Shown here piece by piece: positions 19,743 through 62,277 of a stretch of DNA of 64,000 nucleotides. Within the stretch, counting starts at the first letter, position 1. Each line of letters opens with the position of its first letter. Source of the stretch: Prorocentrum cordatum (taxonomy: Eukaryota); assembly GCA_963575745.1 (NCBI GenBank), contig CAUYUJ010000170.1, positions 1 to 64,000 on the forward strand, written 5' to 3'. The notes beneath the pieces are model-generated. The model had not been told where the DNA came from, searched no databases, and saw only the letters and a list, made by a program, of their open reading frames with translations. Position numbers and translations under genes: made by a program.

Positions 19743-20634
19743 TGTGGCGCTTCTGTTACCCCTCTCCTCTCCTCCCCCTCCCCCCCGCGTGGCGCCGATA
19801 CGTTTGCTGGTGAACTCGTATCGTTCTCACTGCCTGCATTTCTCTGCCCAGTCCGAGCCTGGGGCTATTGCTGGTGTTTCCGGTCACACGCATCACTATT
19901 TATTTTGCCAATGCGTCGTCTGTGCGCCAGGCTTGACTGACTGACAAAAAACAAGAAATAGGCAAACATAGTCAAAAAAAACGTCCCCTGACTATTTTCG
20001 GAATATTTTTGAGCATGTCCCCTGTAGAGGGACAAGCCCGACTTAAGACAAGCAGGATCCGTCAGCATGGAATCGGGAGGTCGGACCGAGTCTGAATTGG
20101 GGATGGGCAGAGCTCCCTTTAGTAAAGCGTGGTTCAATGAAAACGACCTCGGGCCCAAACCTGGCGGGCGTAAGCCTGGAAAATGACGGCCGCGGCGCCC
20201 TCTCGAGAAAAGAAATCGGACAATTCACTAATCGACGTGTCAGGGTGGGGGTTCTGCCCAACTCGGACAGAAGGTGCGTCGGACCCCCCCCCCCTTGGGT
20301 CATTGAAAAAACCCGGCGGGCGGTTTCTCGCTGTGTTCGACCTCTGGGGCTGAGTCGGGCATGCCCCATATACAGGAGGACTATTCAAGAATAGCTCAAA
20401 GATAATAGGGTGACGATTTCATGTGTCTTCGCTATTGTTAGTTTTGTTGACAACTGCTTGAGTATGTCTTATTCTTATCCCAAAATCCTCCTGTCAGAGG
20501 ACATGCCCGACCTGACTCTGGGGGCCCTTGCCAGACCTCGAGCCGTCCAAAAAACAGCTCGGAAGGACAAAACTGGGACCTGGGGACTGGTCGAGAACTT
20601 CGGGGTCGACGTTGTGAACAAAGCATGACGTCGG

Positions 20635-21012
20635 TTGGCGGTGAGCGAGGGGGGAAGCGAGAAGGAGAAGGCCTTCTCAGAAGGCGGCGGGGAATCTCAG
20701 AAGGCCCCCGGCCTTCTGAGAGGTCTTCGTGTCTTCAAGGGAGGCTCAAGCAGATTCTCGGAAGGCCAGGCGACTTCCGAGCCTTCTGAGAAGACCTTAC
20801 TCCAGATTTCGTAATAAAGGGAGAGGGGTCTCATTTCGGGGGGGGGTCTCTTCCAGGCTATCTTGGAGGGCCTGGGGGGTCTGGGACCGATGTTTTGGAG
20901 GGTTCTCCCACGGGGGAGGTCTGAAATGGCTTGTCTTGGAGGGTCCAGACCCCCTCCCTTTTATTACGAAATCTGTAGTATCCTTCTCGCTTCCCCCCTC
21001 GCTCGCCGCCGA
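20635..21012. mobile_element. MITE with TTGGCGG...CCGCCGA termini and 5-bp TSD gtcgg; relative of the psb31 intron element
   Basis: gtcgg at 20630-20634 and 21013-21017. Long TIR gagcgaggggggaagcgagaagga / tccttctcgcttcccccctcgctc. Shares gccttct(a/g)agaag motifs with 61871-62046. Confidence 0.8.
20800..20978. mobile_element. TA-flanked MITE nested in the 20635-21012 element
   Basis: TA|ctccagatttcgtaataaagggagaggggtct ... agaccccctcccttttattacgaaatctgtag|TA. Confidence 0.8.
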
Positions 21013-21568
21013 GTCGGGGGTCTGGGTCGGATCGGGCGGCACGGAGCCGAGGTCGAATGGGATCGGCTGCGCCGGGCTGCGCAACAGCGCCGTGCGAGCA
21101 TCGGGCCGCATCGGATCGCCAGAATTAAAGGGGCAAATGAATACACACAAATAAACAGATTCACCATATTTTCCCATATTTTCTGGGTTGCTATCTTCCC
21201 CCCCACTTCCCAGATTTTCCCATATTTTATTGGGAATCGACGATTCATTGTGTCTGTGTGTTTTTTCCCTCCTGAAGAATATACACTCGGATCGGATCGA
21301 GCTGGCCGGAGCCGATCTCGGATCGGAGCGATCGGATCGAAATGGACCCTGAAGAAGCGGCATACGGTCCACCCGCAGACCCCCCCCTCGCGCCGCGAAA
21401 AAAAAGACACAACGAATCGTCTTTGGTGTGTGGTTCTGTCCTCGGCCTCCTGGGGCCCTCGCCGGACTCGAGGACCGTCACAGACCTGCGCGGGATGAAA
21501 GGCGGGTCCAGGGGAAGGGGTCGAGACCTCCAGAGGTCCACGCTGTGAAAAGTCATGGCGTCGGGATC

Positions 21569-21784
21569 TGGATCGGAAACGTTTGCTTCGCGAGTCGCGG
21601 CGGCGGCCTCGGCGACACGCTATGTCCTGCGAGCGGATAGCCTGTCGCTCCGCTCTCCGGGGCGGGAGGCTGGGAACGGCTCGGGGCGTTGACGCTTGGG
21701 GACTGGGAAATGGTCAGCGTATCGCGCCGAGGCGCGGTGGGCCAGAACTGGCGGCGCGACACGCAAAGCCAAAAATCCCAACCG
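21569..21784. mobile_element. ~215-bp MITE family, copy 1
   Basis: Shares the core gtcgcggcggc..gcggatagc..gtcgctccgctc..ggggcgggagg..ggggactggg with the copies at 26055 and 58792. Confidence 0.75.
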
Positions 21785-22021
21785 TAAACGTAAACTGTTG
21801 GAGGCTCGCACGGACCTCTTGGATCGGCGCTGGACCCCCCTCCATGGCTCGCGGAGCGAGCCAAGGAAGGCGCCGGAGGCGCCGCCGAGGGGGGCCCAGG
21901 TGCCGATCCGAGCAATCCGCGCGGAGATCCGAAAGCTTATGTTTATCAGAAGGCATAAGATCCACTCTAATAATAAGCACCCCCTACCGTACGTTTATGC
22001 AGCTTTTCTCTCTTCGACTGC

Positions 22022-22057
22022 CTGCTCCTTCTCGTGCCAGTGCAGCTCGTAGGCGGC
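22022..22057 (-). CDS. Exon C of putative U2SURP-like gene (AAYELHWHEKEQ)
   Basis: CCCGCAG|GCC...CAG|GCAGT; 36 nt, phase 0/0, every third position G/C. Continues LIDRL naturally. Confidence 0.7.
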
Positions 22058-22469
22058 CTGCGGGCGCGCGCGCGGCACGGGGGCGCCGAAGAGACGGCTG
22101 CTCAGGACAGCTCCTCCTCCTCCTCCTCCTCCTCCTACTCCTCCTCCTCCTCCTCCTCCTCCTCCTCCTCCTCCTCCTCCTCCTCCTCCTCCTCCTCCCT
22201 CCACATCATCCTCCCCCTCCTGCTCCTGCTCCTGCTCCTGCTCCTCCTCCTCCCCTCCTCCTTCTCCTCCTCCTCCTCCTTCTCCTCCTTCCCCCCCTCC
22301 TCCTCCTCTTCCTCCTCCTCCTCCTTCTCCTCCTCCTCTCCTCCTCCTCCTCCTCCGCCTCCTCCTCCACCCCTTATCCTTATAGGTAACTCCTCCCTGT
22401 CGGAACCCGAGGCCGGTCAAAAGGGCGGACTGGGCGTTTCGATTGAGACGCCCTCACAATCCATGGTCC

Positions 22470-23590: not shown

Positions 23591-24988
23591 CAGAGGAGGA
23601 GGAGGAGGAGGAGGAGGAGGAGGAGGAGAAAGAGGAGGAGGAGGAGGAGGAGGAGGAGGAGGAGGACCAAGAGGCCAGAGGTGCGCGGGGGAGGTGTGCG
23701 GGGGCCAGTGCCCGCCAGTGCGGTCCCCCCGAGGAGCGCCCAGGCGAGCGGCGCGGAGGAGGAGCTCCCCAGGCGCGCTGGTGGCGCAGGTCGGGGAGGT
23801 CCGCGCAAGGCGGTGCCCGCCGCCCCGCGCGCCCGCGAGGGGTCGGGCGGAGAGCTGCCACGGGCGACGCAGGGGCGCCTGTCCTCCTCCTCCTCCTCCT
23901 CCTCTCCTCCTCCTCCTCCTCCTCCTCCTCCTCCTCCTCCTCCTCCTCCTCCTCCTCCTCCTCCCCTCCCTTCCTCCTCGGTCGGCTGGTCGGCGGGTCG
24001 GTCCAACTCCAGGCCGTGGGCGACACGGTGGCGCCTCCCCGACCCGCGGGCGGGCGCGCTTCCCTGGCCCGGGCGTTGGCCGTGCTGGGTTTGGCCGCCC
24101 CGCGAGCCCGCGAGGGGGGCGGGCGGAAGCCTGCCGCGGGCGACGAGGTGGCGCCTCCCCGATCCGCGGGCGGGCGTGCTTCCCTGGCCAGGTTGTTGGC
24201 CGTGCTGGGTCTCGTGAAGTGTATCTGGGGACGTCCATCCCGCCCCATTCGTTCCACTCGGCGGAACTGCCGTCGCACGAAGGAACGTCAGCTACGGCAG
24301 ACTTGGTCCAGCGATTCGGGTATGTTGCGGGGGTCTCTGGGGCCCCATCGCTAAACGGCTCCCCTCAATTACTTGGGGTCCCGGCTATATCCGATCGGCG
24401 CCCTCCTGGCCAGCGGGACGGCGCGGACACCGTTCTGCGGGCATCTGCCAAAAGATGTCACCGCGACCTCGGCAGAACTGCAGTGGCCGCTCTGCGGTTC
24501 CTGGCCGCGCGCCACCGGCCCTCTTCCCCGGCAGACCTCCGGCGCCCCTCGCAGAGATCGGGGGCGGCAGGCCCGTCACCGAGCTTCTGGCCGCTGGGGG
24601 GCTGAATTTTCGTTTTGATTCAGTCTTGTCGGTCGTTTTGCCGTTCGTTGTGCCCTGCCAGTTTTCCTGTACCTCCCTGCCGAAACGAGAAACCAGACAC
24701 AGCCGAAGACCAGCAAAACAGCGTCCAGGTACAGCCCTGGGCTAGTTTGGGCCTCGGGGCCGTCAGAAAGCGACTCGGGATGAGCAGCAGGCGCCCCGGG
24801 GGAGCGCGTCGAGAAGAGCGAGGCGCCGGACGACTGGGGCCCCCTCCGTCCCAGAGGCCACGGTTTGCCCCCCCCCCCCCCCCCACCCCCCCACCCACCC
24901 TCTGGAGGTTCGAGGAGGGCGGTTCTGGAAGGTCTTCGGACGACTTGGACCTCTGTTGGCACTCGTTGGGCCTCCGAGGGCCTCTGCA

Positions 24989-25180
24989 TCGGGGGCGTCC
25001 AAGAGGGGGGCGTTCAAAAGGGGGGTGCAAATCATGGCCGGCAGCATGTGCGCGGCCCAGGGGGGGGGGCCATGGACGTAATGAAATAATGAGAGGCGCC
25101 ATGAAGTCTGGAGAAATATCATGGCCCACGCCATGTGATGTCGCCCCCCCAGTCATCACCCCCCTCTTTGTCGCCCCCGA
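24989..25180. mobile_element. MITE, TCGG...CCGA termini, 5-bp TSD ctgca
   Basis: ctgca at 24984-24988 and 25181-25185; TIR tcgggggcgtccaagagggggg / cccccctctttgtcgcccccga. Confidence 0.75.
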
Positions 25181-27778: not shown

Positions 27779-27809
<31 letters not shown>

Positions 27810-32236: not shown

Positions 32237-32497
32237 TACAGGCAGAGTCCATTGCACAGGACACGCGACAGGACACAAGACTCTTCCGACGGCAACATGA
32301 CCTCCCAGAACCACAGGACACAAGGGCACCCTCTCGGGGCCGCGACCGCGGTCACCCGCGGCCGACCCGCGCCCCCGCGACGGGGGGCCAACGTCGGACA
32401 GGACACCAAGGGTGTCCGACAGGCCGCGCCGCCCACCGCGCAGAAAAGTAAATCATGATGCGCCGCGCGCGCCCACCTCCCTCTGGGGGCGGTCACG

Positions 32498-32940
32498 CGA
32501 CCTGTCGCCATGGCAGAAGACCAGAGAACATGGGCGCGGACGCGGACGGCGCAAACGAGAGGACGCGCAGACCACCCTCCCGCGGGAGAGCGACCTGTCG
32601 CAATGGCAGAAGACCAGAGAACATGGGCGCGGACGCGGACGGCGCAAACGAGAGGACGCGCAGACCACCCTCCCGCGGGAAAGCGACCTCTCGCCATGGC
32701 AGAAGACCAGAGAACATGGGCGCGGACGCGGACGGCGCAAACGAGAGGACGCGCAGACCACCCTCCCGCGGGAGAGCGACCTGCCTCCATGGCAGGAGAC
32801 CAGAGAACATGGGCGCGGACGCGGACGGCGCAAACGAGAGGACGCGCAGACCACCATTCCGCGGGAGAGCGACCTGTCGCCATGGCAGAAGACCAGAGAG
32901 AATTGGCGCGGACGCGGACGGAACAAACGAGAGGACGCGC
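32498..32940 (+). repeat. 93-bp tandem repeat x5 in element copy 1
   Basis: cgacct starts at 32498, 32591, 32684, 32777 and 32870. Confidence 0.95.
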
Positions 32941-35900
32941 GTGGGGACTTCTGTATTGCTCACAATAGAAAAGTCGACATTTCCGTCGGCCTCCTTAAAG
33001 GCCCACAGAAATTTCAAATTCAGTTTTTGCAATTACATGGCAGTTTCTTTATTGTGGACAATACAGAACTCCTCACGCGCGCGCGCGTGGGGACTTCTGT
33101 ATTGTTCGCAATAGCAAAGTCGACATTTCCGTCGGCCTCTTTAAAGGGCCACAGAAATTTCAATCTTAGTTTTTCGAATTACATGGCGGCTTTTCTATTG
33201 TGGACAATACCGAACTCCTCGCGCGCGCGCGTGGGGACTTCTATATTGTTCACAATAGAAAAGTTGACATTTCCGCCGGCCTCCTTGATGGCCCACAGAA
33301 GTTTCAAATTCAGTTTCTGGAATTACATGGCGGCTTCTCTATTGTGGACAATACAGAACTCCTCACGCGCGCGCGCGTGCGGGGACTTCTGCATTGTTCG
33401 CAGTAGAAAAGTCGGCATTTCCGTCGGCCTCCTTACCCACAGAAATTTCAAATTCAGTTTTTGCAATTACATGGTGGCTTCTTTATTGTGGACAATACAG
33501 AACTCCTCACGCGCGCGCGCGCGCTCGCACGCGCGCGCGGACGCGCGCGCGTCCGCGCGCGCAGGCGCGTGCGGACTTTCTGTATTGTCCACAATAGAAA
33601 AATCGACAGTTCCGTCGGCCTCCCTAAAGGGCCACAGCAATTTAAAATTCAGTTTTTGGAATTACATGGCGGCTTTTCTATTGTGGACAATACAGAACTC
33701 CTCACGCGCGCGCGCTGACGCGCGCGCGCTGACGGGGGAATTCTGTATGGTTGACAATAGAAAAGTCGAGATTGTCGTCTGCCTCCTTAAGGCGCCACAG
33801 AAATTTCAAATTCAGTTTTTGGAATAAAATGGCGGCTTCTCTATTGTGCACAATACAGAATTCCTCACGCGCGCGCGCGGACGCGCGCGCGTCCGCGCGC
33901 GCGCGCGTGGGGACTTCTGTATTGTCCACAATAGAAATGTCGACATTTCCGTCGGCCTCCTTACAAGCCCACAGAAATTTCAAATTCAGTTTTTACAATT
34001 ACAAAATGGTTTCTCTGTTGTGGGCAATACAGAACTCCTCACGCGCCCGCGCGCGCGGGGACTTCTGTATTGTCCACAATAGAAAAGACGACATTTCCGT
34101 CGGCCTTCTCAAAAGGCAACAGAAACTTCAAATTCAGTTTTTCGAATTACATGGCGGCTTTTCTATTGTTAACAGTACAGAACTCCTCACACGCGCGCGC
34201 GCGTGGGGACTTCTGTATTGTCCAGAATAGAAAAGTCCACGTTTCCGTCGGCCTCCTTAACGGGCCACAGAAATTTCAAATTCAGCTTCTTTTTGGAATT
34301 ACAAGTTTGCTTTTCTATTGTGGACAATACAGAACTCCACGCGCGCGCGTGCGCGTGGACGCGCGCGCGTCCGCGCGCGCGCGTGGGGACTTCTGCATTG
34401 TCCGCAATACAAAAATCGACATGTCCGTCGGCCTCATCAAAGAGCCACAGAAATTTCAAATTCAGATGTTGGAAATACATGGCGGCTTTTCTACTAGGGA
34501 CTATACAGAACTCCTCACGCGCGCGCGCGCATGGGGAGTGCTGTATTGTTCACAATCGAAAAATCTACATTTTCAAATTCAGTTTTTGGAATTACATGGC
34601 GGCTTCTCTATTGTGGACAATACAGAAGTCCTCACGCGCGCGCGGGGACTTCTGTATGGTTCACAAAAGAAAAGTCGACATGTCCGACGACCTCCTTAAA
34701 GGGCCACAGAACTTTCAATTTCAGTTTTTGGAAATACATGGCGGCTTTCCTACTGTGGACAATACAGAACTCCTCACGCGCGCGCGCGGACTTCTGTATT
34801 ATTCACAATAGAAAAGTCGGCATTTCCGTCGGCCCCCTTAAAGGCCCACAGAAAATTCTCAAATTCAATGTTTGGAATTACATGGCGGCTTCTCTATTGT
34901 GGACAATACAGAACTCCTCACGCGCGCGCGGTGACTTCCGCATGGTTCACAATAGAAAAGTCGGCATGTCCGTCGGCCTCCTTAAATGGCCACAGAAATC
35001 TCAAATTCAGTTTTTGGAATTACATGGCGGCTTTTCTATTGTGTACAATACAGAACTCCTCACGCGCGCGCGCGTGGGGACTTCTGTATTGTCCACAATA
35101 GAAAAATCGACATTTCCGTCGGCCTCCTTAAAGGCCCACAGGAATTTCAAATTCAGTTTTTGGAATTACATGGCGGCTTCTCTATTGTTGACGATACAGA
35201 ACTCCTCACGCGCGCGCGCGCGCTGACGCGCGCGCTGACGCGCGCGCGCGCGTGGGGACTTCTGTAGTGTTCAGAATAGAGAAGTCGAAATTTTCGTTGG
35301 CATCTTGAAAAGACCACAGAAATTTCACATTCAGTTTTTGGAATTAAGTGGCGGCTTTTCTATTGTGCACAATACAGAACTCCTCACGCGCGCGCGCGCG
35401 CGTGGGGACTTCTGTACTGTCCACAATAGAAAAATCGACATTTCCGTTGGCCTCCTTAAAGGGCCACGGAAATTTCAAATACAGTTTTTGGAATTACAAG
35501 TTTGCTTTTCTATTGTGGACAATACAGAAGAACTCCTCACGCTCGCGCGCGCGGACGCGCGCGCGTCCGCCCGCGCCCGCGCGCGCGGGGACTTCTGCAT
35601 TGTCCACAATAGAAAAGTCGACATTTCCGTCGGCCTCCTTAGAGGGCCACAAAAATTTCACATTCAGTGTTTGGAATTGCATGGCGGCTTTTCTGTTGGA
35701 CAATACAGAACTCCTCACGCGCGCGCGCACGCGCGCGCGTTGGGACTTCTGTAGTGTCCACAATAAAGAAATCGACATTTCCGTCGGCCTCCTTAACGGG
35801 CAACAGAAATTTCAAATTCAGTTTTTGGAATTACATGGCTGCTTTTCTATTGTGGACAATACAGAGCTTCTCACGCGCGCGCGCGTGCGGACTTTCTGTA

Positions 35901-36885
35901 TTGTTCACAAAAGAAAAGTCGACATTTCCGTCGGCCTCCTTGCAGGGCCACACAAATTTCAAATTCAGCGTTTGGAATTGCATGGCGGCTTTTCCATTGG
36001 ACAATACAGAACTCCTCACGCGCGCGCGCGCGGACGCGCGCGCGTCCGCGCGCGCTTGCGCTTGGGGACTTCGGTATTATTCACAATTGAGAAGTCTACA
36101 TTCCCGTCGGCCTCCTTAAAAGCCCCAAGAAATTTCAAATTCAGTTTTGGAAATGACATGGCGGCTTTTCTATTGCGGACAATACAGAACTCCTCACGCG
36201 CGCGCGCGCGGACGCGCGCGCGTCCGCGCGCGCGCGCGTGGGGGCGCATGCATTGTTCACAATAGAAAAGTCGGCATTTCCGTCGGCCCCCTTAAGGGCC
36301 ACAGAAATTTCAAGTTCAGTTTTTGGATTTACATGGCGGCTTTTTTATTGCCGACAATGCAGAACTCCTCACGCGCGCGCGCGCGCGTGGGGATTGCTGT
36401 ATTGTCCACAAAAGAAAAATCTACATTTCCGTCGGCCTCATTAGAAGGGCCACAGAAATTTCAAATTCAGTTTTTGGAATTACATGGCGGCTTTTCTATT
36501 GTTGACAATACAGAACTCCTCACGCGCGCGCGCGCGTGGGGACCTCTGTATTGTCTACAATAGACAAGTCGACATTTCCCTCGGCCTCCTTAAAGGGCCA
36601 CAGAAAATTCAAACTCAGTTTTTTGGAATTACATGGCGGCTTTTCTATTGTGGACAATACAAAACTCCTCACGCGCGCGCGCGCGGACGCGCGCGCGTCC
36701 GCACGCGCCCGCGCGCGTGGGGACTTCTGTATTGTCCACCATGGAAAGTCGGCGCGTCCGTCGGCCTTCTTAAAGGGCCACAGAAATTTCAAATTCAGTT
36801 TTTGGAATTACATGGCAGCTTTTCTGTTGTGGACCATACAGAACTCCTCGCGCGCGCGCCAGCGCGCGTCCGCGCGCGCGCGCGC
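32941..36885. repeat. ~25 palindromic ~145-bp units with (CG)n linkers, array 1
   Basis: gtggggacttctgtattgtccacaatagaaaagtcg ... cggcttttctattgtggacaatacagaactcctcac (36-bp inverted arms). Confidence 0.95.
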
Positions 36886-37849
36886 TCTAGTTTGCAAGCC
36901 AACACGGCGTCTTTTCTATTCGGAACAATACAGAGCGCTCTATGAGGCTCAGGCTGAGCGCCCGCGTGACTCCGCCAAAAGCGCGCCTCCACTGCTGTTC
37001 CCAGGAGCCCGCCGAAGTGAAGCCAATGCGCAGGACGGCAGGGTGCCCTTTGCGCGCCCCGCGACCTGCCCGAACGCGACGATGAACGAACTTGCAGGGC
37101 TGGGCAAGTACCGGACACAGGAGTACCCTGCTGCGCGGGGGCGACCTCGAGAGAACGCGTCGTTGGTTCACTGGCGGCGCGGCCGCGCTCAGAGGACATC
37201 GCAGAGCATGCCCTTCGCCGCGGCGCCGGCGGCGCGGCGCTAAAACCACAATCTTACATCGAAGCGAACCGAACCCCCAGATGTGCCAGGACACAAGGGT
37301 ACCCGTGACCAGGGCCGCGACCTCCCCGAGGCGCGACGCGCCCAGAACGCCGCGGGCCAAGCCGCCGACGCCCGCGGAAAGCACAGGACACAAGGGTTCC
37401 CTTGCCCGGGGAATGCAGAGGACACGAAGCGCGATGCACAGGACACGAGAGCACCCTTGATTTGGCAGGCCCGACCTGCTAATGGACTCCGACGGCACGG
37501 GGGGGGGGACTTTGCAAAGATCGGGAGTCACAAATCGGAATAAGGGGGTGGGGGGGCTTTGCAGAAATCGGAAGGACGGGGGAGGAGGGGCTTTGCAAAA
37601 ATCGGAAGGACGGGGGGGAAGGGGGGTGGGGGGCTTTTGCAAAAATCAGAAGGACGGGGGCGGGGGGCGAGGGGGACCTTGCACAAATCGGCATGGGGAG
37701 GTGGGGTGAGGACTTTCGCAGAAATCGGGAGGACGGGGGAAGGGGGGTGGCCTTTGCGAACAAAACAAAAGGAGGGGGTGCTTTGCAAAATATTGGGCGC
37801 GTTCGAATCGCAATTCGTAGAAACAGCTTGCTAGACGACTTGCTTGTTT

Positions 37850-49674: not shown

Positions 49675-49929
49675 TTGGGGTGACCCAAAAGGGGGTCCAG
49701 CTGAAAGGGGGTGGTGAAACAGATTTGGGGCAATGTATTGTAAATGGAATGCGCAGGAGACTTGTACTTCATTGTATTGCAAGTAACGTGCTGCGCGCGA
49801 AAATACAACAATAAATTTGCGCCCCGAAACGTATTGCACGCCCCAAATGTATTGCAATCCCAAAAATATATTGCACCAGATCTACTGTACCACCCCCTTG
49901 TCGCTGGACCCCCTTTGGGGTCAACCCGA
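49675..49929. mobile_element. MITE, TTGG...CCGA termini, 5-bp TSD tttcc
   Basis: tttcc at 49670-49674 and 49930-49934; TIR ggggtgacccaaaagggggtccagc / gctggaccccctttggggtcaaccc. Confidence 0.8.
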
Positions 49930-50285: not shown

Positions 50286-50339
50286 CTCGCGGCCAGAATG
50301 TCTCGTGGCCTTCCTCGTCGCCTCTGGTCACCATCGCCA

Positions 50340-51054
50340 TCATAGCGGTCGTCGATGCCGCCATAATCATCCTTATCATCACCACCATCCACCACCGCCA
50401 CCACCCATCATCATCAGCATCACCACCACCATCATCATCATAATAATCATCATCAGCATCATCGCCATCGTCATTCTCAACATCATCATCGTCATCGTCA
50501 TCCTCATCCTCGTCGTCATCATCAGCATCACCATCATCGGCATCATCGTCACCATCATTATCATCATCATCATCATCTCTACCATCGTCTTTATCGTCAT
50601 CACCATTATCATAACTAGCACCACCACATTTATCAACACCACCACTGCCACCATCACAATCACTGACGTAATCACACTTATCAACGACATCATCGTCATC
50701 ATCATATCATCATCGTCGTCACCATAACTGTCATCATTGTCATCATTGGCATCGTTGTCATCACCATCATCGCTATTATCGTCGTCATCACCGCCATCGT
50801 CAACACCATCGTGATCATCATCACCACAAGCATCACCATGCTGATCATCATCGTCATCATCATTGTCGTCATCATCATCATCATCATCAGCATCATCATT
50901 TTCATCCCTGTCATCATTGTCATCATCACCATCATCATCACCATCGGAACCATAATTACATTCATCCTCACAAACATCATCCTCGTCATCGTCTTCATCG
51001 TCACTACCGTCATCTCAACTACAACCAACCACCACAATTATCACCACCATTGTC

Positions 51055-51086
<32 letters not shown>

Positions 51087-51440: not shown

Positions 51441-52859
51441 TAGCTGCTGTCACAAGGCCGCCTCGCACGGACTTCGCGGCTGCCCTGCAGGCGGACCGCC
51501 CGAACCTGAAACTGATGGCATCACGGGCAGCGGATCGACCGAGCCTGCTGGGACTGAAACTTGACGCACACGTTTCAGCATGGACGAACCGACATCCTCC
51601 TCCTCCTCCTCCTCCCCTCCTCCTCCTCCTCCTCCTCCTCCTCCTTCTCCCCTATTCCGTCCCTCATTATCTCCTCCTCCTCCTCCTCCTCCTCCTCCTC
51701 CTCCCCCTCCTCCTCAGCAGGATGAAACGTTTGATCATTGACCAAATAAAGAAAAGCATCTCCGACGATGTGATTGTGGCCGACCGGCGGCTTCTGGCCC
51801 TCGGGGGCCGCTGTCGGGCCGCGGACGAAAAACTACCCCCGTGAGAAGGGGATCGGGAACTTTGGGGTCGCTGATTGAAGCAGAAACACATCGTCGGATG
51901 TCTGGCAAGAACGAACTGGAAGCGGGAAGCGAGGGGGGCAGAGAACAAGAGCGAAGACAGTTGCAGCGGACAGAGGAAGAACAGATAATCAGCAAGAGAG
52001 GGACAAATAGAAGTGCCAAGGAGAGGCGCACGGGAAGCCGAAAGCACGGCAAGAAACAGGACGACAATGCAACACCTGCCGACCAAGCCAGCGATCATCT
52101 AGAATTCGAGTCAAACGCCGTCTTACGCTAAGCATGGCGCATCTTCCCCCTTCTCCTCCTTCCCCTCCTCCTCCTCCTGTTCCTCCTGCTCCTCTCTCCT
52201 CATCCTGCTCTTGGTCATCCTCCTGCATGAACCGTCTAGAGCCCCGTCGATCCAAGCACCCCCCGAAACACAACCCCCTCCTCCCCCTCCTTCCTCCTCA
52301 GTGTCCTAAAATTCCTCCCTCTCCCCCTCCTCTCTCCTCCCTCCTCCCCCTCCTCCTCCTCCTCCTTCTACTCCTCCTCCTCCTCCTCGGTTCGGTGCGG
52401 TTCGGAAGAGCGCAAGGGGTTCAAGGCGCACACACGGGTGAGACGAGAGCAACGCAGGAATAACGGCAGAGACAGGCATCCCGCTTCCGGCGCCGTGGGG
52501 CGCATCCCTCCCTGCGAGCGAGGGGCCGTCAACAACAGGGAACGATCATCCACAACAAAAAGACACCAACGAGAAAAAGGAAACGGAAATACCATACAAT
52601 CAGGAGACGAAGAATATTCCCCATAAGCACGGGCCAACTTACTGCCAAAGGCGCCGGAACCCCAACTGGGGCATTGCACCACATTCTCGGGGCAGTGCCA
52701 CAAGGAGGAATGCCTAAGAATCGGCCTTGGCCGAATCAAAACCTCCCCCTAGAGTGCGTTGTTTCACGGACTGCGTGCAACTATTCGCACGGCGTCTGCG
52801 CACCCAAGAGCACACAACGAGATGACATGCCTGCACACACACGCACACACGAGTCGTGC

Positions 52860-52891
52860 CCGTAGTCGTACCCGTAGTCGTCGTACTCGTC

Positions 52892-52925
<34 letters not shown>

Positions 52926-52998
52926 CAGTAGTAGTAGTAGTAGAAGTAGTAATAGTAGTAGTAGGAGTTGTAGTAGTATTAATTATACAACCGTAATC

Positions 52999-53061
<63 letters not shown>

Positions 53062-53580
53062 AAGGTAGTAGTAGTAGTAGTAGTAGTAGTAGTCGTGGGC
53101 ATAGTAATAGTAGCATTAGCCGGAATCGCAGTAGTAGTAATAATAGTCGTAGTAGCCGGAGCAGTAGTCGCAGCAGTCGTGGCGGATGTGGTAGTAGTAC
53201 TAGGTAGCGGTAGTAGTAGTAGTAGTAGCAGCAGTAGTTGTAGTAGTCGTGGTAACTTTAGTGGCAGCGGAAGTAGTAATAGCAGGGCAAACAGTAGTAG
53301 CAGTAGTAGTAGTAGTAGTCGTAGTCGTAGTCGCAGTCGTAGTTGATGTAGCCGGTGTAGTAGTAATCATATGAATAGTTGTCGTGGAAGTCGTACTTGA
53401 AACAGTAATTTTCGGAAAAGTACTGGGAGTAATCGTGGAGGTAGTCCAAATAGTGGTGGCAGTACAAGTACCACTGCAAGTCGTAGGAGTAGCAAAAGTA
53501 CTCGTAGTCGTCGTGTCGTCGTTGTAGTAGTCGTGGTACTCGTAAAAGTCGTCGTCGTAGTAGTAGTACTCGTAGTAGCG

Positions 53581-53618
<38 letters not shown>

Positions 53619-53658
53619 CGTGGAACAAAAGAAGTAGTAGTAGCTGTGATAGTGATAA

Positions 53659-53691
<33 letters not shown>

Positions 53692-53811
53692 CAGTAGTAG
53701 TAGTAGTAGTAGTAGTAGTAGCAGTAGCAGTAGCAATGGTAGTAGTAGCCGTCGCAATCGACATAGAAGTCGTCGTAGCAGTTGTAGTAGTAGTTGTCTC
53801 AGTAGTAGCAC

Positions 53812-53856
<45 letters not shown>

Positions 53857-53857
53857 C

Positions 53858-53891
<34 letters not shown>

Positions 53892-55073
53892 ATCGTGGTA
53901 GTAGTAATAGTAGCAGTAGTAGTAGTAAGAGTAGTAGTAGTAGTAGTAGTAGTAGACGCAGTCGCCGTAGCCGTAGCCGTAACAGTGGTCGCAGTAGTGG
54001 TAGTAAGACTAATAGCAGTAGACGTAGAAGTAGTAGTAGTCGCAGTCGTAGCAGTCGTAGTAGTAGTTGCTGTAGCTGCTGCTGCCGAATAAGTAAAAGT
54101 CGTGCGAATGGTAATTTCAGAAAATTAGCAGTAGACGTAGTAGTAGTAGTCGTAGTCGTACGTGCCGTCGCCGTCGTACTCGTCACCATAATGGTAGTAA
54201 GAACACTGGTAGTGAGGATAGTGGTGGAAGTAACAATGATAATACTACTAGTGGCCGTAGTAGCAGTAGCAGTAGCGGTGATACTAATAGTGGTAGCCGT
54301 AGTGGTAGTAGTAGTAGTAGTAGTAGTAGCAGCAGTCATCGTAGTAGTCACAGTAGCAGTGGTAGTAGTAATACGAAAGGCAGCAGTAGTAGTAGCAGCA
54401 GTAGTCGTAGTAGTGGTAGTAGTAGTAGTAGTAGTGGTAGTAGTAGTCATAGTAGTAATCATGGAAATAATAAGAATAGAAGGGGGAGGGGTAATAGTAG
54501 TAGTCGTGGTGGTCGCAGTCGTAATGGTAGTAATAATAGTGGTTGTCATAGTAGCGATAGTTAGAATACTGGTTGTAGCAGTACCCGTAGTAGTAAACAT
54601 AATAATGAAGGCAATCGTGGTAGCCGTAGTTGTGATATCCATACGAGCCGCAATAGGTAGTAATAGTAGTAGCTGTAGTAGAAGAAGTACGAGTAATAGT
54701 AATAGCAGAAGTGGTAGCAATCGTACTAGTAACGGTGGTAGTAATAATAGTAAGGGTAGTTGTGGTGGTAATAGTAGTAGTCGTCGTCGCCGTCGTCGTG
54801 ATAGTTGTAACCGTAACCGTAGTAGTCGTATGCGCAGTAGTAACTAAAGTTTCTACAGCTGCAGTTGTAGTAGTAGAACATGTAGTAGTGATAGTAGCAA
54901 GAGCAGTAGAAGTAATAGTAGTAGTCGTCGTAGTGGTAGTAACAGTAGTAGTCGTAGTAGAGTCGTAGTAGTAGCAGTAGTACTAGTAGTAGTCGTAGTA
55001 GTAGTCGTAGCAGTAGTAGTAGTAGTAGTAGTAGTAGTAGTCGTCGTCGTCGTGGTGGTAGTAGTAGTAGTAT

Positions 55074-55166
<93 letters not shown>

Positions 55167-55167
55167 T

Positions 55168-55207
<40 letters not shown>

Positions 55208-55390
55208 CAGTAGCAGTAGTAGTAGTAGTAGTAGTAGTAGTAGTCGTCGTAGTCGTAGTCGTAGTAGTAGTAGCAGTAGCAGTAGTAGTAGTAGTAGTAG
55301 TACTAGTAGTCGTAGTAGTTGTTGTTGTGGTAGTTAGTGGCCGTAGTAGTCATAGTGGTAGAAGTAGCATTAGTAGTTGTAGTAGTAGAA
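52860..55390. repeat. (GTA)n microsatellite, ~2.5 kb
   Basis: gtagtagta runs with gca/gtc variants. Confidence 0.97.
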
Positions 55391-55589
55391 GAAGGAGGAC
55401 GAGGAGGAGGAAGAGGTGAGGGGGGAAGAGGAGGAGGAGGGGGAGAGAGAGGACGAGGAGGAGGGGGAGGAGGAGAAGGAGGAGGAGAAGGGTATCATGC
55501 CACGAAATTCAAACACACACCACACATACAATATACCCATTCAAGTACCAAACCTGTACAATCAACTTGGTACTCGACGTCCCTTCCTT

Positions 55590-56060
55590 CCGTCAGTTCT
55601 GGAGACGAAACAAATACGTCTGAAGAAGAAAATACTCCTGATCAAGAAGTGCTCCTGAAGAAATGAGATACTTACGAGGACGAAAGAAATACTCCCGAAG
55701 AAAAACGAAGTTTTGCTGAAGCACTTCTGGAGAAGGAAAAAGTGCTTCTGAAGAAGAAGGACGTGCTACTGAAGAAGAGAGGCATACTTCTGAAGGGGAA
55801 AGGAGTACTCCTGAAGAAGAACAAAATGCTTTTGAAGAAGGAAGAAGTACTCCTGAAGAGGGACGAAGCACTTCTGAGGAAACTTCTGATATAAGTACTT
55901 CTGAAGAAGAAAGAAGTACTTCTAAAGAAGGGAGACGTCCTCCTGAAGCAGAGGGAAGTGCTCCTAATGAAAAAAGAATTAGTTTTGGAGAAGGACGAAG
56001 CACTTCTGAGGAAGCTTCTGATATGAGCACTTCTGAAGAAGAGAGAAGTAATTCTGAGAA
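55590..56060. repeat. 21-bp tandem repeat (agtacttctgaagaagaaaga-like)
   Basis: About 20 degenerate units. Confidence 0.85.
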
Positions 56061-56347
56061 GGAATCAGCCGGGATTGGTCCCAGTAAACCGGTATTGGTA
56101 TCCATTCCGGGGGCAATCTCCTCCTCGCCCTCGTCCTCCTCCCCCCTCCCTCCTCCGACTCCCTCGCTCGCCCGCGCGCCGGGGCCCGCGTCCGAAGACG
56201 CCCTGCCTGTTCGGAGGCTGACGCCACGGAGGTCATGCAAGGGGGCATGGGGTCACTCCCCAACGACGGACGACGGAGCCATAGCAAGGAAGGCCACGAC
56301 AGGACGACAGATGACGGATTCGTCGTCGGCCTCCTCCCCCTCCTCCG

Positions 56348-56349
<2 letters not shown>

Positions 56350-56379
<30 letters not shown>

Positions 56380-57075
56380 AACAGCGGCATCTTCACCACC
56401 CCTCATCGCCCTCATCATCACTATCATCAGCATCATCACAATCGTCAGCATCAGCATCATCGTCATCATCATCGTCATTACCATCATCTTCATCGTCAGC
56501 ATTATCATCGTCGTCACCGTCGTCGTCATCATCACCACAATAATCACATCATCATCACAATCATCACCAACACCATCATAACCGTCGTCGGTATCGTTAT
56601 CACTGTCGTCGTGAGCATCAGCATCAACATCCGCATCATCAGTATCAGCATCCGCATCCGCATCACCACGATCATGCTCATCATCCTCAGAATCCTCATC
56701 ATAATCATCATCAGCATCACCATCATCATCATCCTCACCATCCTCATCATCATCACAAGCATCACCACCATCATCACCATCACCATCATCATCACCATCA
56801 CCACCACCATCATCATCAGCATCAACATCCTCGTCATAACCACCATCACCAACACCATCACCATCATGATCATGATCAGCATCATCAGCATCATCATTAT
56901 CGTCATCCTCATCATCACCATCAACATCATCATCGCCGTTGTCGTCATCGTCATCGTGACCGGCACCATCAACATCATCATCACCATCATCAGCAGCATT
57001 ACCACCATCAGTACCACCATCATCCTCAACATCATCCTCATCCTCATCCTCATCATCGTCATCATCATCATTCTT
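56350..57075. repeat. (CAT)n microsatellite
   Basis: catcat runs. Confidence 0.95.
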
Positions 57076-57142
57076 CCTACTCCTCCTCCGACCCCCTCTT
57101 CCCCATGGCCTTCATCTCCGCCTTTCCTCCCGACCGGCTCGC

Positions 57143-57235
57143 CTCGACGTGGGAGGTGGAGAATCGCAAGCCGCGGGTGCGGCACATCTTCTCGAGCTGC
57201 GAGAAGTGCTGCTTGCGCCAGTCCTCGGGCGGCCA
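57143..57235 (-). CDS. Exon A of putative U2SURP-like gene ([WPPE]DWRKQHFSQLEKMCRTRGLRFSTSHVE)
   Basis: TGGCAG| acceptor (alternative GAG|GAC start at 57223), GAG|GCGAG donor, very high GC3. SQLEKMCRTRGL matches the SAP first-helix pattern. Confidence 0.72.
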
Positions 57236-58349
57236 CTGCCAGCAGTAGGAGAAAAACGATGAGGAGGAGGAGGAGGAGGAGGAGGTGGAGGAGGAGGAGG
57301 AGGAGGAGGATGGGGAGTCGCCGTCGTCGCTGTCGGCGTCGCCGAGGATTACCAGGCTCGTCATAGGCTTACAAGGGCACCTGAACTTCTTTAGGGATTG
57401 ATAGGTCATCGGCGAATTAGTGGAAACTGTGGGGCACCTTGCGGGAAAGCAGCCGCGAGACCGAGGTTCGGATAGGCTTCTGCTCTAGCCACTTGGACGA
57501 CTTCGAACACGGTGTGTGTATTGATCCAGTTTTGATCGGTGATGGGGAAGCTTCGAATACGTTGGGTTTCGACCTATTCGTTCGTACTCACTCGGTGCGA
57601 GAGTTTGGACGACGTCGGAATAGTTGTGCGAGCACTCCCTAGAGTGGGTATGGAGGAGGAGGGGGAAGACAGGGACGAGACGCAAGCAGATGAGGATGAT
57701 GAGGGGGGGGGGGCGAGACGCAGACGCGGTGGAGTAGACGGAGGACACGGAGAAAGAGGAGGAGGAGGAGGAGGAGGACGAGGAGGAGGTGGAGGAGGAG
57801 GAGGAGGAGGTTTCTCTTCCTCCCCCCCTGCCCCCTCCCGGTTGCAGTGAGAGGCGCTGCTGCGCCGCGCCCCTGCGTGCCGACCTTTTCACGGAGCTCA
57901 TGCTCGCCATGCTTCTCCTTGGTTCCGCGTCGCTCCTCCTCGCTCCTCGCTGCTCCTCGCTCCTCGCTCCTCGCTCCTCCTCCTCCTCCTCCTCCTCCTC
58001 CTCCTCTTCATTATCCTCGCTCCTCGTTCCTCCTCCTCCTCCTTGCTCCTCCTCCTCCTCCTCCTCCTCCTCCTCCTGCTGCAGGTGGTATCACTCATTT
58101 ACTGTCACGAAGGCCACGCCGCCCGAGCTGGGTCCCTTCCACTCTTCTCCTTGTGGCGCCGACGGCACGGCCTCGCGGCTGCAGCCCATGCAGCGCAAGC
58201 AGTAGCGCCCGCCCCACAAAGGAAGAGGCGGAGGGGGGAGGCCGAAGGGGGGGCAAGCGACCGACCGAGACCCAAGAGAACACACCTCACGAAAGGGAGA
58301 ACCTGGGAAGCAGCAGCGGCGCCAGGAGCCAGGGCTTCGGACGCCCGAC

Positions 58350-58534
58350 ATGGGTACGGAAAGAGTGGGTACAATGCCCAACAACAAATGTTGTCCCGAA
58401 CCAGCAGCGGCCGCTGTTGGGCAGGCGGCCTCCTGTCTCGAATGGACACAGGCCGCGGCGGCGTGGACAGCGAGCCCTGTTCAAAATGAGCAGGAACTGC
58501 TGTTGGGCACTGTACCCATTCTTTCCGTACCCAT
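58350..58534. mobile_element. MITE-like inverted repeat element
   Basis: atgggtacggaaagagtgggtacaatgcccaaca / tgttgggcactgtacccattctttccgtacccat. Confidence 0.8.
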
Positions 58535-58791
58535 TTTGTTCGTGCAGAACCATTTGGCCAGCCCTGTGAGAAACTATAAGTGCCGATACTGCTACTCCAC
58601 GGACCTCCCCCAGGGTGGGTTCTAACAGAGATTTCGAGGCGCATCCGGCCGTGGCGATGAGGGCCTCCCGGGAGACCCAGAAAGGCTAAAACGAAGCGAG
58701 AGTGGCAGCATCGGTACCTTCTCCTCCTCTGAGCCTGGCGATGCCCTCGGTGATCCCTGTGTCTCACTGCAAACCTTCGGAGGGGAGGGGG

Positions 58792-59005
58792 CGGTCGGAG
58801 ACTTTCGCTTAGCGTGTCGCGGCGGCGGCCCCAGCGACTCGCTATAACCTGCAAGCGGATAGCGTGTCGCTCCGCTCCGCGGGGCGGGAGGCTCGAAGAA
58901 GCTCGGGACGTTGACGCTCGGGGACTGGGATGCGGTTAGCAAGTAGGGTGAAGCGTGATGGACCAGAACCAGCGGCGCAACACGCTAAGCTGAAGTTCCT
59001 GAGCA
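58792..59005. mobile_element. ~215-bp MITE family, copy 3
   Basis: TIR gcttagcgtgtcgc / gcaacacgctaagc; same core as the copies at 21569 and 26055. Confidence 0.8.
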
Positions 59006-59196
59006 TAATTGCGACTCGCACTCTATCGATTGTTCTGTAACGTTAGTGCCACCGCAATCCTGATGGAACAATCGGCGAGCGCACGATCCAAACGAATGCC
59101 CTGGGGTATCCCGGCGGCCCCACGGAAGCACCGACAGCCTGGACAGGCCCGTAGTCTGACGCAGTTGTCCCTGATCGCGCCCGCGAGGGCCTCCCA

Positions 59197-59305
59197 TAGG
59201 GGAACGAAGAATGCCATAAACATAAAAACGCGGAGGTCCGCGCGGATTTCTCGGATCCGCGCTGACTTCAGACCTTTTATGTTTATGCCATTCTCCTTTC
59301 CCCTA
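59197..59305. mobile_element. 109-bp MITE, TAGG...CCTA termini, 5-bp TSD tccca
   Basis: tccca at 59192-59196 and 59306-59310; ~30-bp TIR; empty-site paralogue at ~59540-59594. Confidence 0.88.
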
Positions 59306-60330
59306 TCCCAAGGACCTTGGCACGAAGCAACCGGGCCACGATGACACGATGAGCATCGTTTATCCGACCCCTATCCCCAGCGGCGTGGCCTGGGCCCCAC
59401 TGGCCCATTTACCCCCCTAGATGGGGATACAGGCCGTTCCCTTCGGGTTTCGAGGGGCATATCCCCAGCTGGGGTGGTAGCATGGTGGGGCTGAGAAACC
59501 ATTGCTCAGTGGGGATGGGGATAGGTTCAACGATGCTGATGATCGCGCCCTCGAGGGCCTTCCAAGGACCTTGGCACGAAGCAGGCGGGCCACGAGGCGA
59601 ACGGGCCCTGGACCATGCCTGGGCCATGGGGGCCTTCCCCTGGGACCGGCCTCTCCTCATCCTGAGCAGCTCTTTGTGGAGGTTTTCTCCGAAGGGCTCA
59701 GGCGACCCGTCCTCCTCCTCCTCCTCCTCCTCCTCCTCCTCCTCCTCCTCCTCCTCCATCTCCTCCATCTCCTCCATCTCCTCCTCCTCCTCCTCCTCCT
59801 TCTCCTCCTCCTCCTCCTCCTCCTCCTCCACCACTTTTCCTCCTCCTCCTCCTTTTCCTCCTCATCTTCCTCCTCCTCCTCCTCCTCCTCCTCCTCCTCC
59901 TCCTTGGGTCGCATACGGCCCCGGGGGAAGCCGTGCAGTTTTTTGACAGCCCCAGGGCAAGCGGAGGGCACCGGGAGCCCCAGAACGGCAAAAAAGCTAT
60001 AGGGCCTGTTTCCCTCAGCCGAGGAAAACATATTAGCCAGCGTGGGCCCAAAGCAGTGTGCTCCCAGCGGCCGATGTTGAACAAGCTATGTTGAGCAATC
60101 TATGTGGTGCAACACATGTGTTGTGCAAGGTATGTTGTGCATGGTTGCGTCATGTACGTTGTGAAACTATGTGATGCAATATATGTGGTGTAATGTGTGG
60201 TGCCATCCGTGTGGTGCGCAATCTATGTGGTGCAATCTATGTCGTGCAGCCTATGTGGTGCCATCTGTGTGGTCCGCAATATATATACATGAATATATGT
60301 ACACACATATATATATATACATGTTTATGT

Positions 60331-60378
<48 letters not shown>

Positions 60379-60559
60379 TGCAATCGACGTGATGCGCCCT
60401 ACGTGGTGCAACATAGGTGGTGCGTGTGTTTTTTGTCCCGACCCTCCGTGTTGGGCTCTCGTCTGCAAAAGAGGACTGGCCTCCGCCTCTCCCGCCTCCC
60501 GCTTCCCCCCTGCCTTCCTCCTCCTGCCGTCTGCTTCCTCCTCCTCCTCCTCCCTGCCA

Positions 60560-61300
60560 CGCGCATCCAGCCGAGACCTCGCTGCTCCCCGGGTCGCTGC
60601 TCCCCGGGTGGCTGCGAACTGCGCAGCCGTCGCCGCGTTCGTGGGCTCCTGGGAGGTCCAAGCGGAGTCGGGGGGCCCACGCGCACCCGGATGGGAACCT
60701 CGCAGCTCCCCGGGTGGCTGCGAACTGCGCAACCGTCGCCACGCTTTCGTGGGCTTCTGGGAGGTCCAGCGGAGTCGGGGGCCACGCGCATCCAGCCGAG
60801 ACCTCGCAGCTCCATGGGAGGCTGCGAACTGCGCAACAGTCGCCGCGTTCGTGGGCTCTTGGGGAGGTCCAGCGGAGTCGGGGGGCACGCGCACCCGGAC
60901 GGGAACCTCGCAGCTCCATGGGAGGCTGCGACCTGTGCAACCGTCGCCACTTTCGGGGGCTCTTGGGGAGGTCCAGCGGAGTCGGGGGGCACGCGCACCC
61001 GGACGGGAACCTCGCTGCTTCCTGGGGGGCTGCGACCTGTGCAACCGTCGCCACTTTCGGGGGCTCCCGGGGGGGGGGGGGTCCAGCAGAGTCCGGGGGC
61101 ATGCAAACCCAGACGGGACCTCGCTGCTCCCGGGGCGGCTGCGAACTGCGAAACTGCGAAACTGCCGCCACGCTTTCGTGGGCTCCCCTGGGAGGTCCAG
61201 CAGGGTCGGGGGCCACGCAAACCCCTTTGAGACCTCGCTGCTCCATGGGTGGCTGTGAACTACGCAACTGTCGAAACTTTCATGGGCTCCTGGAAGGCAC
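60560..61300 (+). repeat. ~105-bp tandem repeat, array 2
   Basis: About 7 units of gcgaactgcgcaaccgtcgcc..ggaggtccagcggagtcggggg. Confidence 0.9.
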
Positions 61301-61565
61301 GGCAAAGAGGAGGGCAGCGCAGATCGTGCATATCTGGCGATGTGTTGTTTTGTACGATGCCTTTATACAAATGTTAGCCTCGCGTGGAGAAGGGATGGGT
61401 ATGTCTCGGGTCTTTTTGTGTTGCAGTGCCCCCCCCATTCGTGGAAGCCCGCTTGAAAAAAATCCCCCCGCGCCAGGAGGGTGCGCGGCCGGCGTATTGC
61501 GCAGACAAAGAAGATTCGTTCAGGGGTCAGGTGCGCAAGGCGAGATGCCCGACGGGGACACTCAC

Positions 61566-61869
61566 TCAACGCTTGCCCATAGAGGCGTCACGGTTGGTCA
61601 TGTGGTACTGCCTGGCCGGGGGCAAGTTGGCGAACGTCTTCAGCTCCGACTTCTCCATGTACTTGGCGTACAGCGTCTTCACCTTGTCCGTCTGCCCGTC
61701 TGCGGCGGAATCCAGGAGGTCCTCGGAGATCTCGGTCTGCGCGGCGAAGTCCTTCGGCTGGTTGCGCCAGTACGTGTTGAGCATCTTGAACTTGTTCTCC
61801 TTGGCCAGGACCGCTTTCATGTCGCCAGCGTCGATGGCGCTCTGCAGCTTGATGATGGCGGGGGCGTAC
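61566..61869 (-). CDS. psb31: Psb31-like photosystem II extrinsic lumenal protein, exon 2
   Basis: YAPAIIKLQSAIDAGDMKAVLAKENKFKMLN..KVKTLYAKYM follows the diatom Psb31 pattern (YG.RI..L..AV.KGDF.AV..EKNAF.LFN..L..AY.EY) as recalled. AAG|G acceptor; TGA at 61566-61568. Confidence 0.75.
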
Positions 61870-61870
61870 C

Positions 61871-62046
61871 TTGGCGGCGCGCAAAGGGGGGTAGGGTAGG
61901 GGGAGGGGGGAAGGCTTCTTAGAAGCACCCTGCTTCTTAGAAGGCCTCGGCTCTACGTCTATAGAGAAGGCCCGCGCCTTCTAAGAAGCAGGGGTGCTTC
62001 TAAGAAGCCTTCCCCCCTCCCCCTACCCCCCTCTGCGCGTTGCCGA
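61871..62046. mobile_element. Introner-type MITE forming the psb31 intron (intron 61870-62050)
   Basis: ~75-bp imperfect inverted arms, TTGG...CCGA termini, TSD gtacc at 61866-61870 and 62047-62051. Confidence 0.85.
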
Positions 62047-62050
62047 GTAC

Positions 62051-62277
62051 CTCTTCATGCAGGTCACCGGCTCGCCCTGGAAGTCGGCCAGCGCCGTCTC
62101 GCCGCCGGCCGCCGCCAACAGCACCGCGGCCGCGCCCATGGCCGCCTCGCGGCGCCCCGGCGGCGGGGCCGCCGCGAGGAAGGCGCCCGGCGCGGGGCCC
62201 GCGAGGGCCGCGAGGCACGCGGCCGCGAGGGCGTAGGCGCCCGCGCAGGCGGCGCACAGCGGCAGGAGCCTGGCCAT
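62051..62277 (-). CDS. psb31: Psb31-like protein, exon 1 (plastid and thylakoid targeting presequence)
   Basis: MARLLPLCAACAGAYALAA signal peptide, AF motif, twin-Arg GRREAA, hydrophobic stretch, ALA|D cleavage. Donor AG|GTAC. The exons total 531 nt, in frame (176 aa). Confidence 0.8.

Follow-up and report, generated by a model that had tools for sequence, protein, structure and literature searches.

Miniature elements with 5-bp target-site duplications in Prorocentrum-like DNA, one of them a probable introner in Psb31

Results

Five hairpin elements share terminal bases and a duplication length

The window, by which we mean the whole of the 64,000-nt stretch of DNA analysed here (positions 1–64,000 of contig CAUYUJ010000170.1), carries five short elements, E1–E5, each bounded by terminal inverted repeats (TIRs) and flanked by a direct repeat that is treated here as a target-site duplication (TSD). 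One of them, E5, lies within a photosystem gene, Psb31, on the minus strand. A sequence-only reading had placed elements at these coordinates, and all five are confirmed there, with ends of the form T(C/T/A)GG...CC(G/T)A and perfect 5-bp direct repeats in five cases out of five. E1 (20635–21012, 378 bp) has the termini TTGG...CCGA and sits between copies of GTCGG at 20630–20634 and 21013–21017; its TIR score, counted as complementary matches within the first 16 nt of each end, is 14/16. E2 (24989–25180, 192 bp, TCGG...CCGA) likewise scores 14/16 and duplicates CTGCA, and E3 (49675–49929, 255 bp, TTGG...CCGA, 13/16) is flanked by TTTCC, which reads GGAAA on the minus strand. E4 (59197–59305, 109 bp) ends in TAGG...CCTA, scores 14/16 and has the TSD TCCCA. 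E5 (61871–62046, 176 bp, TTGG...CCGA, 12/16) is a near-perfect palindrome with the TSD GTACC, or GGTAC on the minus strand, which is the sense strand of Psb31; its arms (24–158) are self-complementary at 89.9% over 138 bp.

These five elements, and two metagenomic relatives introduced below, are predicted to form hairpins that pair one end with the other and are much more stable than those of shuffled sequences (z from −7.2 to −17.1 over all seven; −17.1 for E1, −7.2 for E2, −11.0 for E3 and −9.5 for E4), with 11–15 of the first 15 nt paired with the opposite end. The five have no coding capacity, span 109–378 bp and are mostly self-complementary, as expected in size for miniature inverted-repeat transposable elements (MITEs). 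They are best explained as non-autonomous MITEs that form hairpins and fall into three or more groups by sequence (E1/E5, E2/E3 and E4), between which no internal sequence is common. E1 and E5 have in common the terminal pattern TYGGCGG.G.GC.A.GGGGGG and CTTCT(C/T)AGAAG palindromes, and E2 and E3 the terminal motif CCAA(G/A)AGGGGG...AAAGGGGG(G)TG. The TIR of E4, TAGGGGAACGAAGAATGCC, has only T.GG (three of the first four bases) and the duplication length in common with the others. Among the eight termini of E1, E2, E3 and E5, five are TCGG and three TTGG, and all four metagenomic termini are TCGG; the ancestral terminus was most likely TCGG...CCGA, with TTGG arising through CpG decay.

Two of the elements have further structural peculiarities. 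E1 contains a nested palindromic insert of ∼185 bp (20798–20980) with ends CAGATTTCGTAATAAAGGGAG, in which E1 positions 164–184 and 326–346 are self-inverted, and this insert appears as an alignment gap in both metagenomic relatives. The boundary of E4 is ambiguous, in that ATAGG...CCTAT with a duplicated CCC gives the same empty site. Both E2 and E4 sit just after a common 10-mer, CGAGGGCCTC (24977–24993 and 59185–59201, respectively), which may reflect a target preference, a common underlying repeat or chance.

An empty site and relatives in other flanks

A paralogous empty site for E4 is present at 59540–59595, 240 bp from the element. It is uninterrupted and has a single TTCCA, and it is identical at 52 of 56 bases to the E4 flanks joined with one TSD copy. 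For E1, relatives were found elsewhere. Metagenome contigs scanned with the E1/E5 terminal pattern gave 48 matching loci, of which only two, L038 and L045, have an inverted partner (18/21 and 17/21 matches); the other 46 reach at most 14/21 and were set aside as lone chance matches in GC-rich DNA. L038 and L045, both from a single marine metagenome, are elements of ∼200 bp with both termini and unrelated flanks. Each can be aligned to the entire outer part of E1 (∼200 bp), and the L038 copy is bordered by a perfect 5-bp duplication, AGGTC. The E4 empty site and the E1 relatives in other flanks support reading the five features as transposon-like insertions rather than chance repeats.

A scan of the window designed for this family (T.GG ends, 11 or more of 16 TIR positions matching and an exact repeat in the flanks) gave 63, 8, 2, 5, 0, 0, 0 and 0 hits for flanking repeats of 2–9 bp, respectively, and the set of five at 5 bp consists of E1–E5 and nothing else. 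The TIR pattern itself matches the window 12 times against an expectation of 0.18: seven of these matches are ends of E1, E2, E3 or E5, one belongs to a second, internal repeat of E2, and four are G-rich low-complexity sites.

E5 lies within the coding sequence of Psb31

When each element was removed together with one copy of its TSD and the joined sequence was translated in all frames, protein-like sequence was obtained for E5 only, on the minus strand. Exon 1 of the resulting gene (62051–62277, minus strand, 227 nt) encodes MARLLPL...FQGEPVTCMK and ends in AG, the first two bases of an arginine codon; it aligns to residues 1–73 of two relatives, the Prorocentrum cordatum paralogues P0003 and P0004. 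Exon 2 (61566–61869, minus strand, 304 nt including the stop codon) starts with the G that ends this codon, continues as YAPAIIKLQ...DASMGKR, and matches the Pfam family PSII_Pbs31 (PF18240; E value 1e-06; 29.4 bits, above the cutoff of 25). The predicted intron (61870–62050, minus strand, 181 nt, phase 2) comprises GTAC from one TSD copy, the whole of E5, and G from the other copy. Its ends, GTACTCGG...GCCGCCAAG, conform to GT...AG and the next exonic base is G, which makes an AG/G junction. With slashes marking the splice sites, the sense strand around the element reads ...AAGAG/GTAC-TCGG...GCCAA-G/GTACGCC. The gene has no intron other than this predicted interval.

The joined product is 176 aa long, is identical to P0003 in 154 of 176 columns and aligns at the junction without a gap. 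A search of 5.8 billion proteins gave seven relatives among nine candidates. The two closest, at 92% identity, are 174-aa proteins of Prorocentrum cordatum, which read ...FQGEPVTCMKRYGPAIIKLQ..., and across the junction the relatives read ...VTCMKRYGPAII.... At the protein level the four full-length relatives that were aligned, P0003, P0004 and P0006 (174 aa each) and P0008 (167 aa), are all continuous across the E5 site. Excision of GTAC, E5 and G would thus restore the conserved Psb31 frame exactly, as the joined translation shows, and we infer that the spliceosome removes this interval. E5 is the one element of the five that lies in a gene with intron borders coinciding with the borders of element and TSD. 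For the predicted intron, the modelled fold is a hairpin running from end to end (−150.6 kcal/mol, z −15.8; none of 200 shuffles was as stable), in which a few bases separate the two splice sites.

In a further relative, the 121-aa protein P0007 from a public contig of 558 bp, similarity breaks off exactly at the position of the E5 intron: unrelated residues precede ...GRP/RYGPAIIKL, with the slash at the break. An intron at the E5 site of another copy or species, if read through, could account for this. Removal of E5 also opens a 590-aa frame on the plus strand. It is rich in arginine, proline and glycine and partly antisense-like, and was judged non-coding, the gene being on the minus strand.

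Four registers would permit precise excision

The sequence-only reading had proposed that an element of this kind becomes a perfect intron when its sense-strand TSD is GG[T/C/A]NN (GGHNN). E5 bears this out, with the sense TSD GGTAC, a predicted GT...AG intron and a restored protein, but the rule is incomplete and describes one register of four. The set is our own derivation from an element with T...A ends, a 5-bp duplication and precise GH...AG excision. In the register GGHNN the acceptor A comes from the element and the acceptor G from the duplication; in AGGHN and in NAGGH the duplication provides both splice sites; and in NNAGG the donor T comes from the element. Sense-strand 5-mers that fit any of the four registers make up about 0.089–0.125 of the total.

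Among the window's elements, E5 (GGTAC) and E3 (GGAAA, minus strand) fit GGHNN, and E1, E2 and E4 fit no register on either strand. GGHNN occurs on either strand at 0.114 of window positions, and two fits among five copies have a chance probability, P(≥2), of ∼0.10; the GG[TCA] enrichment that the rule would lead one to look for is therefore not seen among the window copies.

The metagenomic L038 copy offers a possible example of another register. Its duplication, AGGTC, is flanked by a frame that is open and in phase on both sides (...LSLDAENFAQ and VDMTDVGPV...), which is suggestive of a would-be GT...AG intron in the AGGHN register, outside the GGHNN rule. None of 152 candidate homologues of this open frame passed. 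The exonic status of the copy is only suggestive, because open frames are common in GC-rich DNA and the homologue search was negative.

Surroundings of E1–E4 and search for a transposase

Translation of the empty sites of E1–E4 in all frames gave no protein-like frame across any of them. Their flanks were also scanned against Pfam, using 97 of 103 open reading frames (ORFs) of 70–164 aa between 46 and 60.5 kb and 72 ORFs between 17.5 and 28.5 kb. One lead near E3, a Gaa1 match in the ORF at 50382–51014 (minus strand), scored 23.6 bits against a cutoff of 28.6; a protein search gave two irrelevant matches among 8000 scored candidates, and phmmer gave 102 weak matches, none at or below 1e-10, and the lead was dropped. 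E1–E4 are most likely intergenic or intronic copies without coding consequence.

Two known transposon superfamilies were compared with the elements and rejected. Transib elements make 5-bp duplications and have CAC... termini; the duplication length fits, but 10 of 10 termini here begin with T(C/T/A)GG. hAT elements have 8-bp duplications, YARNG termini and a hAT transposase. The duplication here is 5 bp rather than 8, YARNG fits E4 (TAGGG) alone, and no transposase was found in the ORFs scanned. Viral contigs scanned with three TIR patterns gave 0, 0 and 2 loci, the latter two without an inverted partner (best 11/21).

Host and other features of the window

The window contains two perfect copies of the 21-nt dinoflagellate spliced-leader (DinoSL) motif, against an expectation of 0.00. 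They lie at 16095–16115 (minus strand), just upstream of a GDSL-lipase-like ORF (14689–16218, minus strand), and at 62717–62737 (plus strand), at the start of a long ORF (62723–64000, plus strand), and they look like relic leaders of retroposed genes. The G+C content of the window is 0.46–0.65 per 4-kb bin. Because of the two DinoSL relics, the G+C content and the 92% identity of Psb31, the one gene of the window with clear relatives, to Prorocentrum cordatum proteins, the window reads as part of a dinoflagellate, Prorocentrum-like genome. For comparison, the available text of Dougan et al. (2023, PMC10666404) gives the P. cordatum genome a G+C content of 59.7%, with intron donors that are 24.7% GT, 51.4% GC and 23.8% GA, and AGG at 79.7% of acceptors.

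Several other features belong to the window as a whole. The 4-kb bin at 52001–56000 has a G+C content of 0.459, much below the rest of the window, and a strongly positive GC skew (0.27). Two similar blocks, at 32497–36859 and 40202–44596, each consist of a 93-bp tandem repeat (4.8 copies) followed by a satellite with a unit of ∼146 bp, and both are bordered by (CG)n. The satellite unit has inverted ends of its own (GGGGACTTCTGTATTGTCCACAATAGAAAAG...), and the layout suggests that either a segment of ∼4.4 kb was duplicated or a MITE-like unit forms arrays. The DNA between the blocks includes, at 37847–38716, AAATTTTGCTT-type tandem repeats that are AT-rich, measure 42 and 30 bp and run in both orientations. 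At 60417–61300, GC-rich repeats hold five to six overlapping frames open on both strands, giving ORFs of 286–501 aa, none of them protein-like; caution is therefore due in taking long ORFs for genes here. No Rfam family matched within the window.

Discussion

We consider it probable that the five elements are dinoflagellate MITEs of three or more groups with a 5-bp TSD, and that E5 is a spliced introner in Psb31. In the mechanism we envisage, a cut-and-paste transposase making 5-bp staggered cuts would have moved the elements. At the Psb31 site both the donor (G/GT) and the last base of the acceptor AG would come from the duplicated GGTAC, the A before it would be the terminal A of E5, and the hairpin would draw the two splice sites together. 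E5 would then be an introner of a kind already described in dinoflagellates.

A number of observations weigh against this model. For E5, splicing is a prediction from the DNA sequence. None of the seven relatives in the protein search is 100% identical to this Psb31 copy, and therefore no gene model or transcript-derived protein backs it. Psb31 is multi-copy, with at least two P. cordatum paralogues, and a broken copy could persist for a while. Among the 22 sequencing runs listed, the share of words from 55000–63000 is at most 0.14, a figure that is uninformative on habitat or expression. For the elements in general, each of the five is single-copy within the window, and the metagenomic L045 copy has unmatched flanking 5-mers (AGAGA and GTTGA), that is, no duplication. 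A general inverted-repeat scan of the window gave 5534 raw pairs, 1060 of which passed a complexity filter, and a 5-bp flanking repeat was present in just three, E1, E2 and E3; E4 was scored as 3 bp, its boundary being ambiguous, and E5 fell below the TIR threshold. A shifted-flank control of the same scan gave seven pairs with a 5-bp match against the three real ones. The control is high because two satellite arrays dominate the pair list. The general scan by itself thus gives no excess, and the case therefore rests on the family-specific scan and the independent evidence of insertion. Finally, Pfam gave nothing credible in the 97 and 72 flanking ORFs, at most low-complexity or membrane-like sub-threshold matches, and no transposase domain was detected in these or in 141 long ORFs.

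The last point bears on how many transposases were at work. One transposase may have moved all five elements, as the sequence-only reading proposed; an autonomous partner with the same ends, for which it suggested a search, was not found in the 64-kb window, an absence that within 64 kb says little. The elements could instead belong to at least three MITE families with no relation to each other, each moved by a transposase of its own that happens to give 5-bp duplications, the T.GG likeness being superficial. The lack of internal similarity between E1/E5, E2/E3 and E4 would fit this, as would the E4 TIR with its three agreeing bases among the first four, and the preprint by Roy et al. (bioRxiv 10.1101/2020.10.14.339549) divides the introners of Polarella alone into 15 classes, whose duplications measure 3, 4, 5 and 8 nt. 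Yet all credible TIR elements in the 64 kb begin with T.GG and have one duplication length, and a G-run at about positions 15–22 is common to E1, E2, E3 and E5. We regard unrelated families as possible, if rather unlikely.

It is less likely again that E5 is an unspliced, disruptive insertion in a redundant Psb31 copy, a young pseudogene with a coincidental GT...AG fit. This explanation draws on the points listed above for E5, namely the sequence-based case for splicing with its low run shares, a best protein match of 92% among seven, and the several copies in the Psb31 family. In addition, ∼8–12% of sense 5-mers permit precise splicing, so a chance fit is not rare. Set against this, no stop codon interrupts either exon and the product has its full length, at 176 aa compared with 174 aa in relatives, and its differences from the paralogues in the mature part appear conservative. 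The arms of E5 have diverged to ∼90% while both TSD copies and the reading frame have stayed intact, and the junction is the lineage's preferred AG/G. Inverted repeats that arose by chance, or errors in assembling DNA rich in GC and in repeats, which the satellite-dominated general scan and its high shifted control might suggest, are highly improbable and effectively refuted by the family-specific scan (five hits at 5 bp against two at 4 bp and none at 6–9 bp), the E1 homologues on independent metagenome contigs and the E4 empty site, and the excess of TIR-pattern matches over expectation also speaks against them.

The reading of E5 as a spliced introner has close precedents. In the preprint by Roy et al. 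(10.1101/2020.10.14.339549), the donor of Symbiodinium introners comes from a 4-nt duplication and the acceptor is the element end; the Polarella classes use several registers; and exonic GH after the acceptor is tied to introner origin. The accessible text of Gozashti et al. (2022, PMC9860276) likewise describes a TSD donor and an element acceptor in S. microadriaticum. As far as these sources describe them, the introner-like elements (ILEs) of Symbiodinium and of Polarella glacialis classes 4/5 resemble E5 in being non-autonomous TIR elements whose splicing restores the original mRNA, as is predicted for E5, and both kinds would account for exonic GH after the acceptor. They differ from E5 in having a 4-nt duplication and the whole AG within the element, whereas E5 has 5 nt and the element gives the A only. 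The Symbiodinium signature, CT (or CC) at intron positions +5/+6, also differs from the TCGG...CCGA termini of the window elements. P. glacialis ILE class 12, as described there, is closer in duplication length, with 5 nt, and like the window elements has more than one register (NAGGH or NNAGG). However, class 12 elements begin with C, have mainly GC donors and insert productively in one orientation (10.1101/2020.10.14.339549), whereas those of the window start with T and end with A, a symmetry that by our derivation would allow four registers in either orientation. Membership of class 12 was rejected on these grounds: the duplication length agrees, but all window elements start with T.

For P. 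cordatum itself, the available text of Dougan et al. (2023, PMC10666404) describes introners as introns that carry 8–20-nt inverted repeats and 3–5-nt direct repeats near both ends. They account for 2.4% of introns and occur in 8,934 genes, and the introns of the species are enriched in such repeat elements. This pattern would also cover the predicted E5 intron, and the host genus is likely the same. The pattern is generic, however, and that text gives no families, termini, fixed 5-bp duplication or splice-site rule. In Amoebophrya, according to the available text of Farhat et al. (2021, PMC7789003), introners have 8–20-nt inverted and 3–5-nt direct repeats at exon/intron borders and, like E5, a predicted hairpin joining the exon ends. 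Their borders are mostly non-canonical and no family-specific repeat is described there, whereas E5, the sole exonic copy in the window, is canonical GT-AG. No TCGG...CCGA family with a 5-bp duplication turned up in full-text literature searches, with Dougan et al. and preprint supplements excluded.

The principle of co-option extends to other algae. The introners of Micromonas and Aureococcus, in the 2016 work of Huff, Zilberman and Roy, reportedly carry one splice site in the transposon and take the other from the TSD. They would share this principle with E5, but belong to another lineage, have 3- and 8-bp duplications and lack a long hairpin.

Taken together, these comparisons indicate that the mechanism is already known and that this family appears to be a new member. 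The sequence-only reading had also suggested that insertion of such elements may help explain the AG/G bias and non-canonical donors of the lineage; within what is available of the two sources, TSD donors and element acceptors as an explanation for the exonic G after AG in dinoflagellates are already in print (10.1101/2020.10.14.339549; PMC9860276). A wider proposal, which we hold to be doubtful, is that TCGG...CCGA elements form an undescribed DNA-transposon lineage that is a major intron-maker of Prorocentrum-type dinoflagellates, using four registers in either orientation. If true, about one exonic hit in ten would be silent at once, the strong hairpin would keep donor and acceptor close to each other, and the AGG acceptor bias and the GT, GC and GA donors would be linked to one concrete element.

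With the general mechanism established in dinoflagellates and other algae, the value of the present case is incremental. E5 in Psb31 offers a clean single-gene case of a jumping element in a coding exon with the protein left intact: a Psb31 gene of one exon is predicted to have been split into two exons, with an intron made up of E5 and part of the duplicated target site. Beyond this gene, a concrete family is defined by its termini, duplication length and hairpin, together with the four splice registers open to such elements. These features can serve as search patterns for a genome-wide census in a bloom-forming dinoflagellate with a large genome, for which previous reports of introners are limited to a generic pattern.

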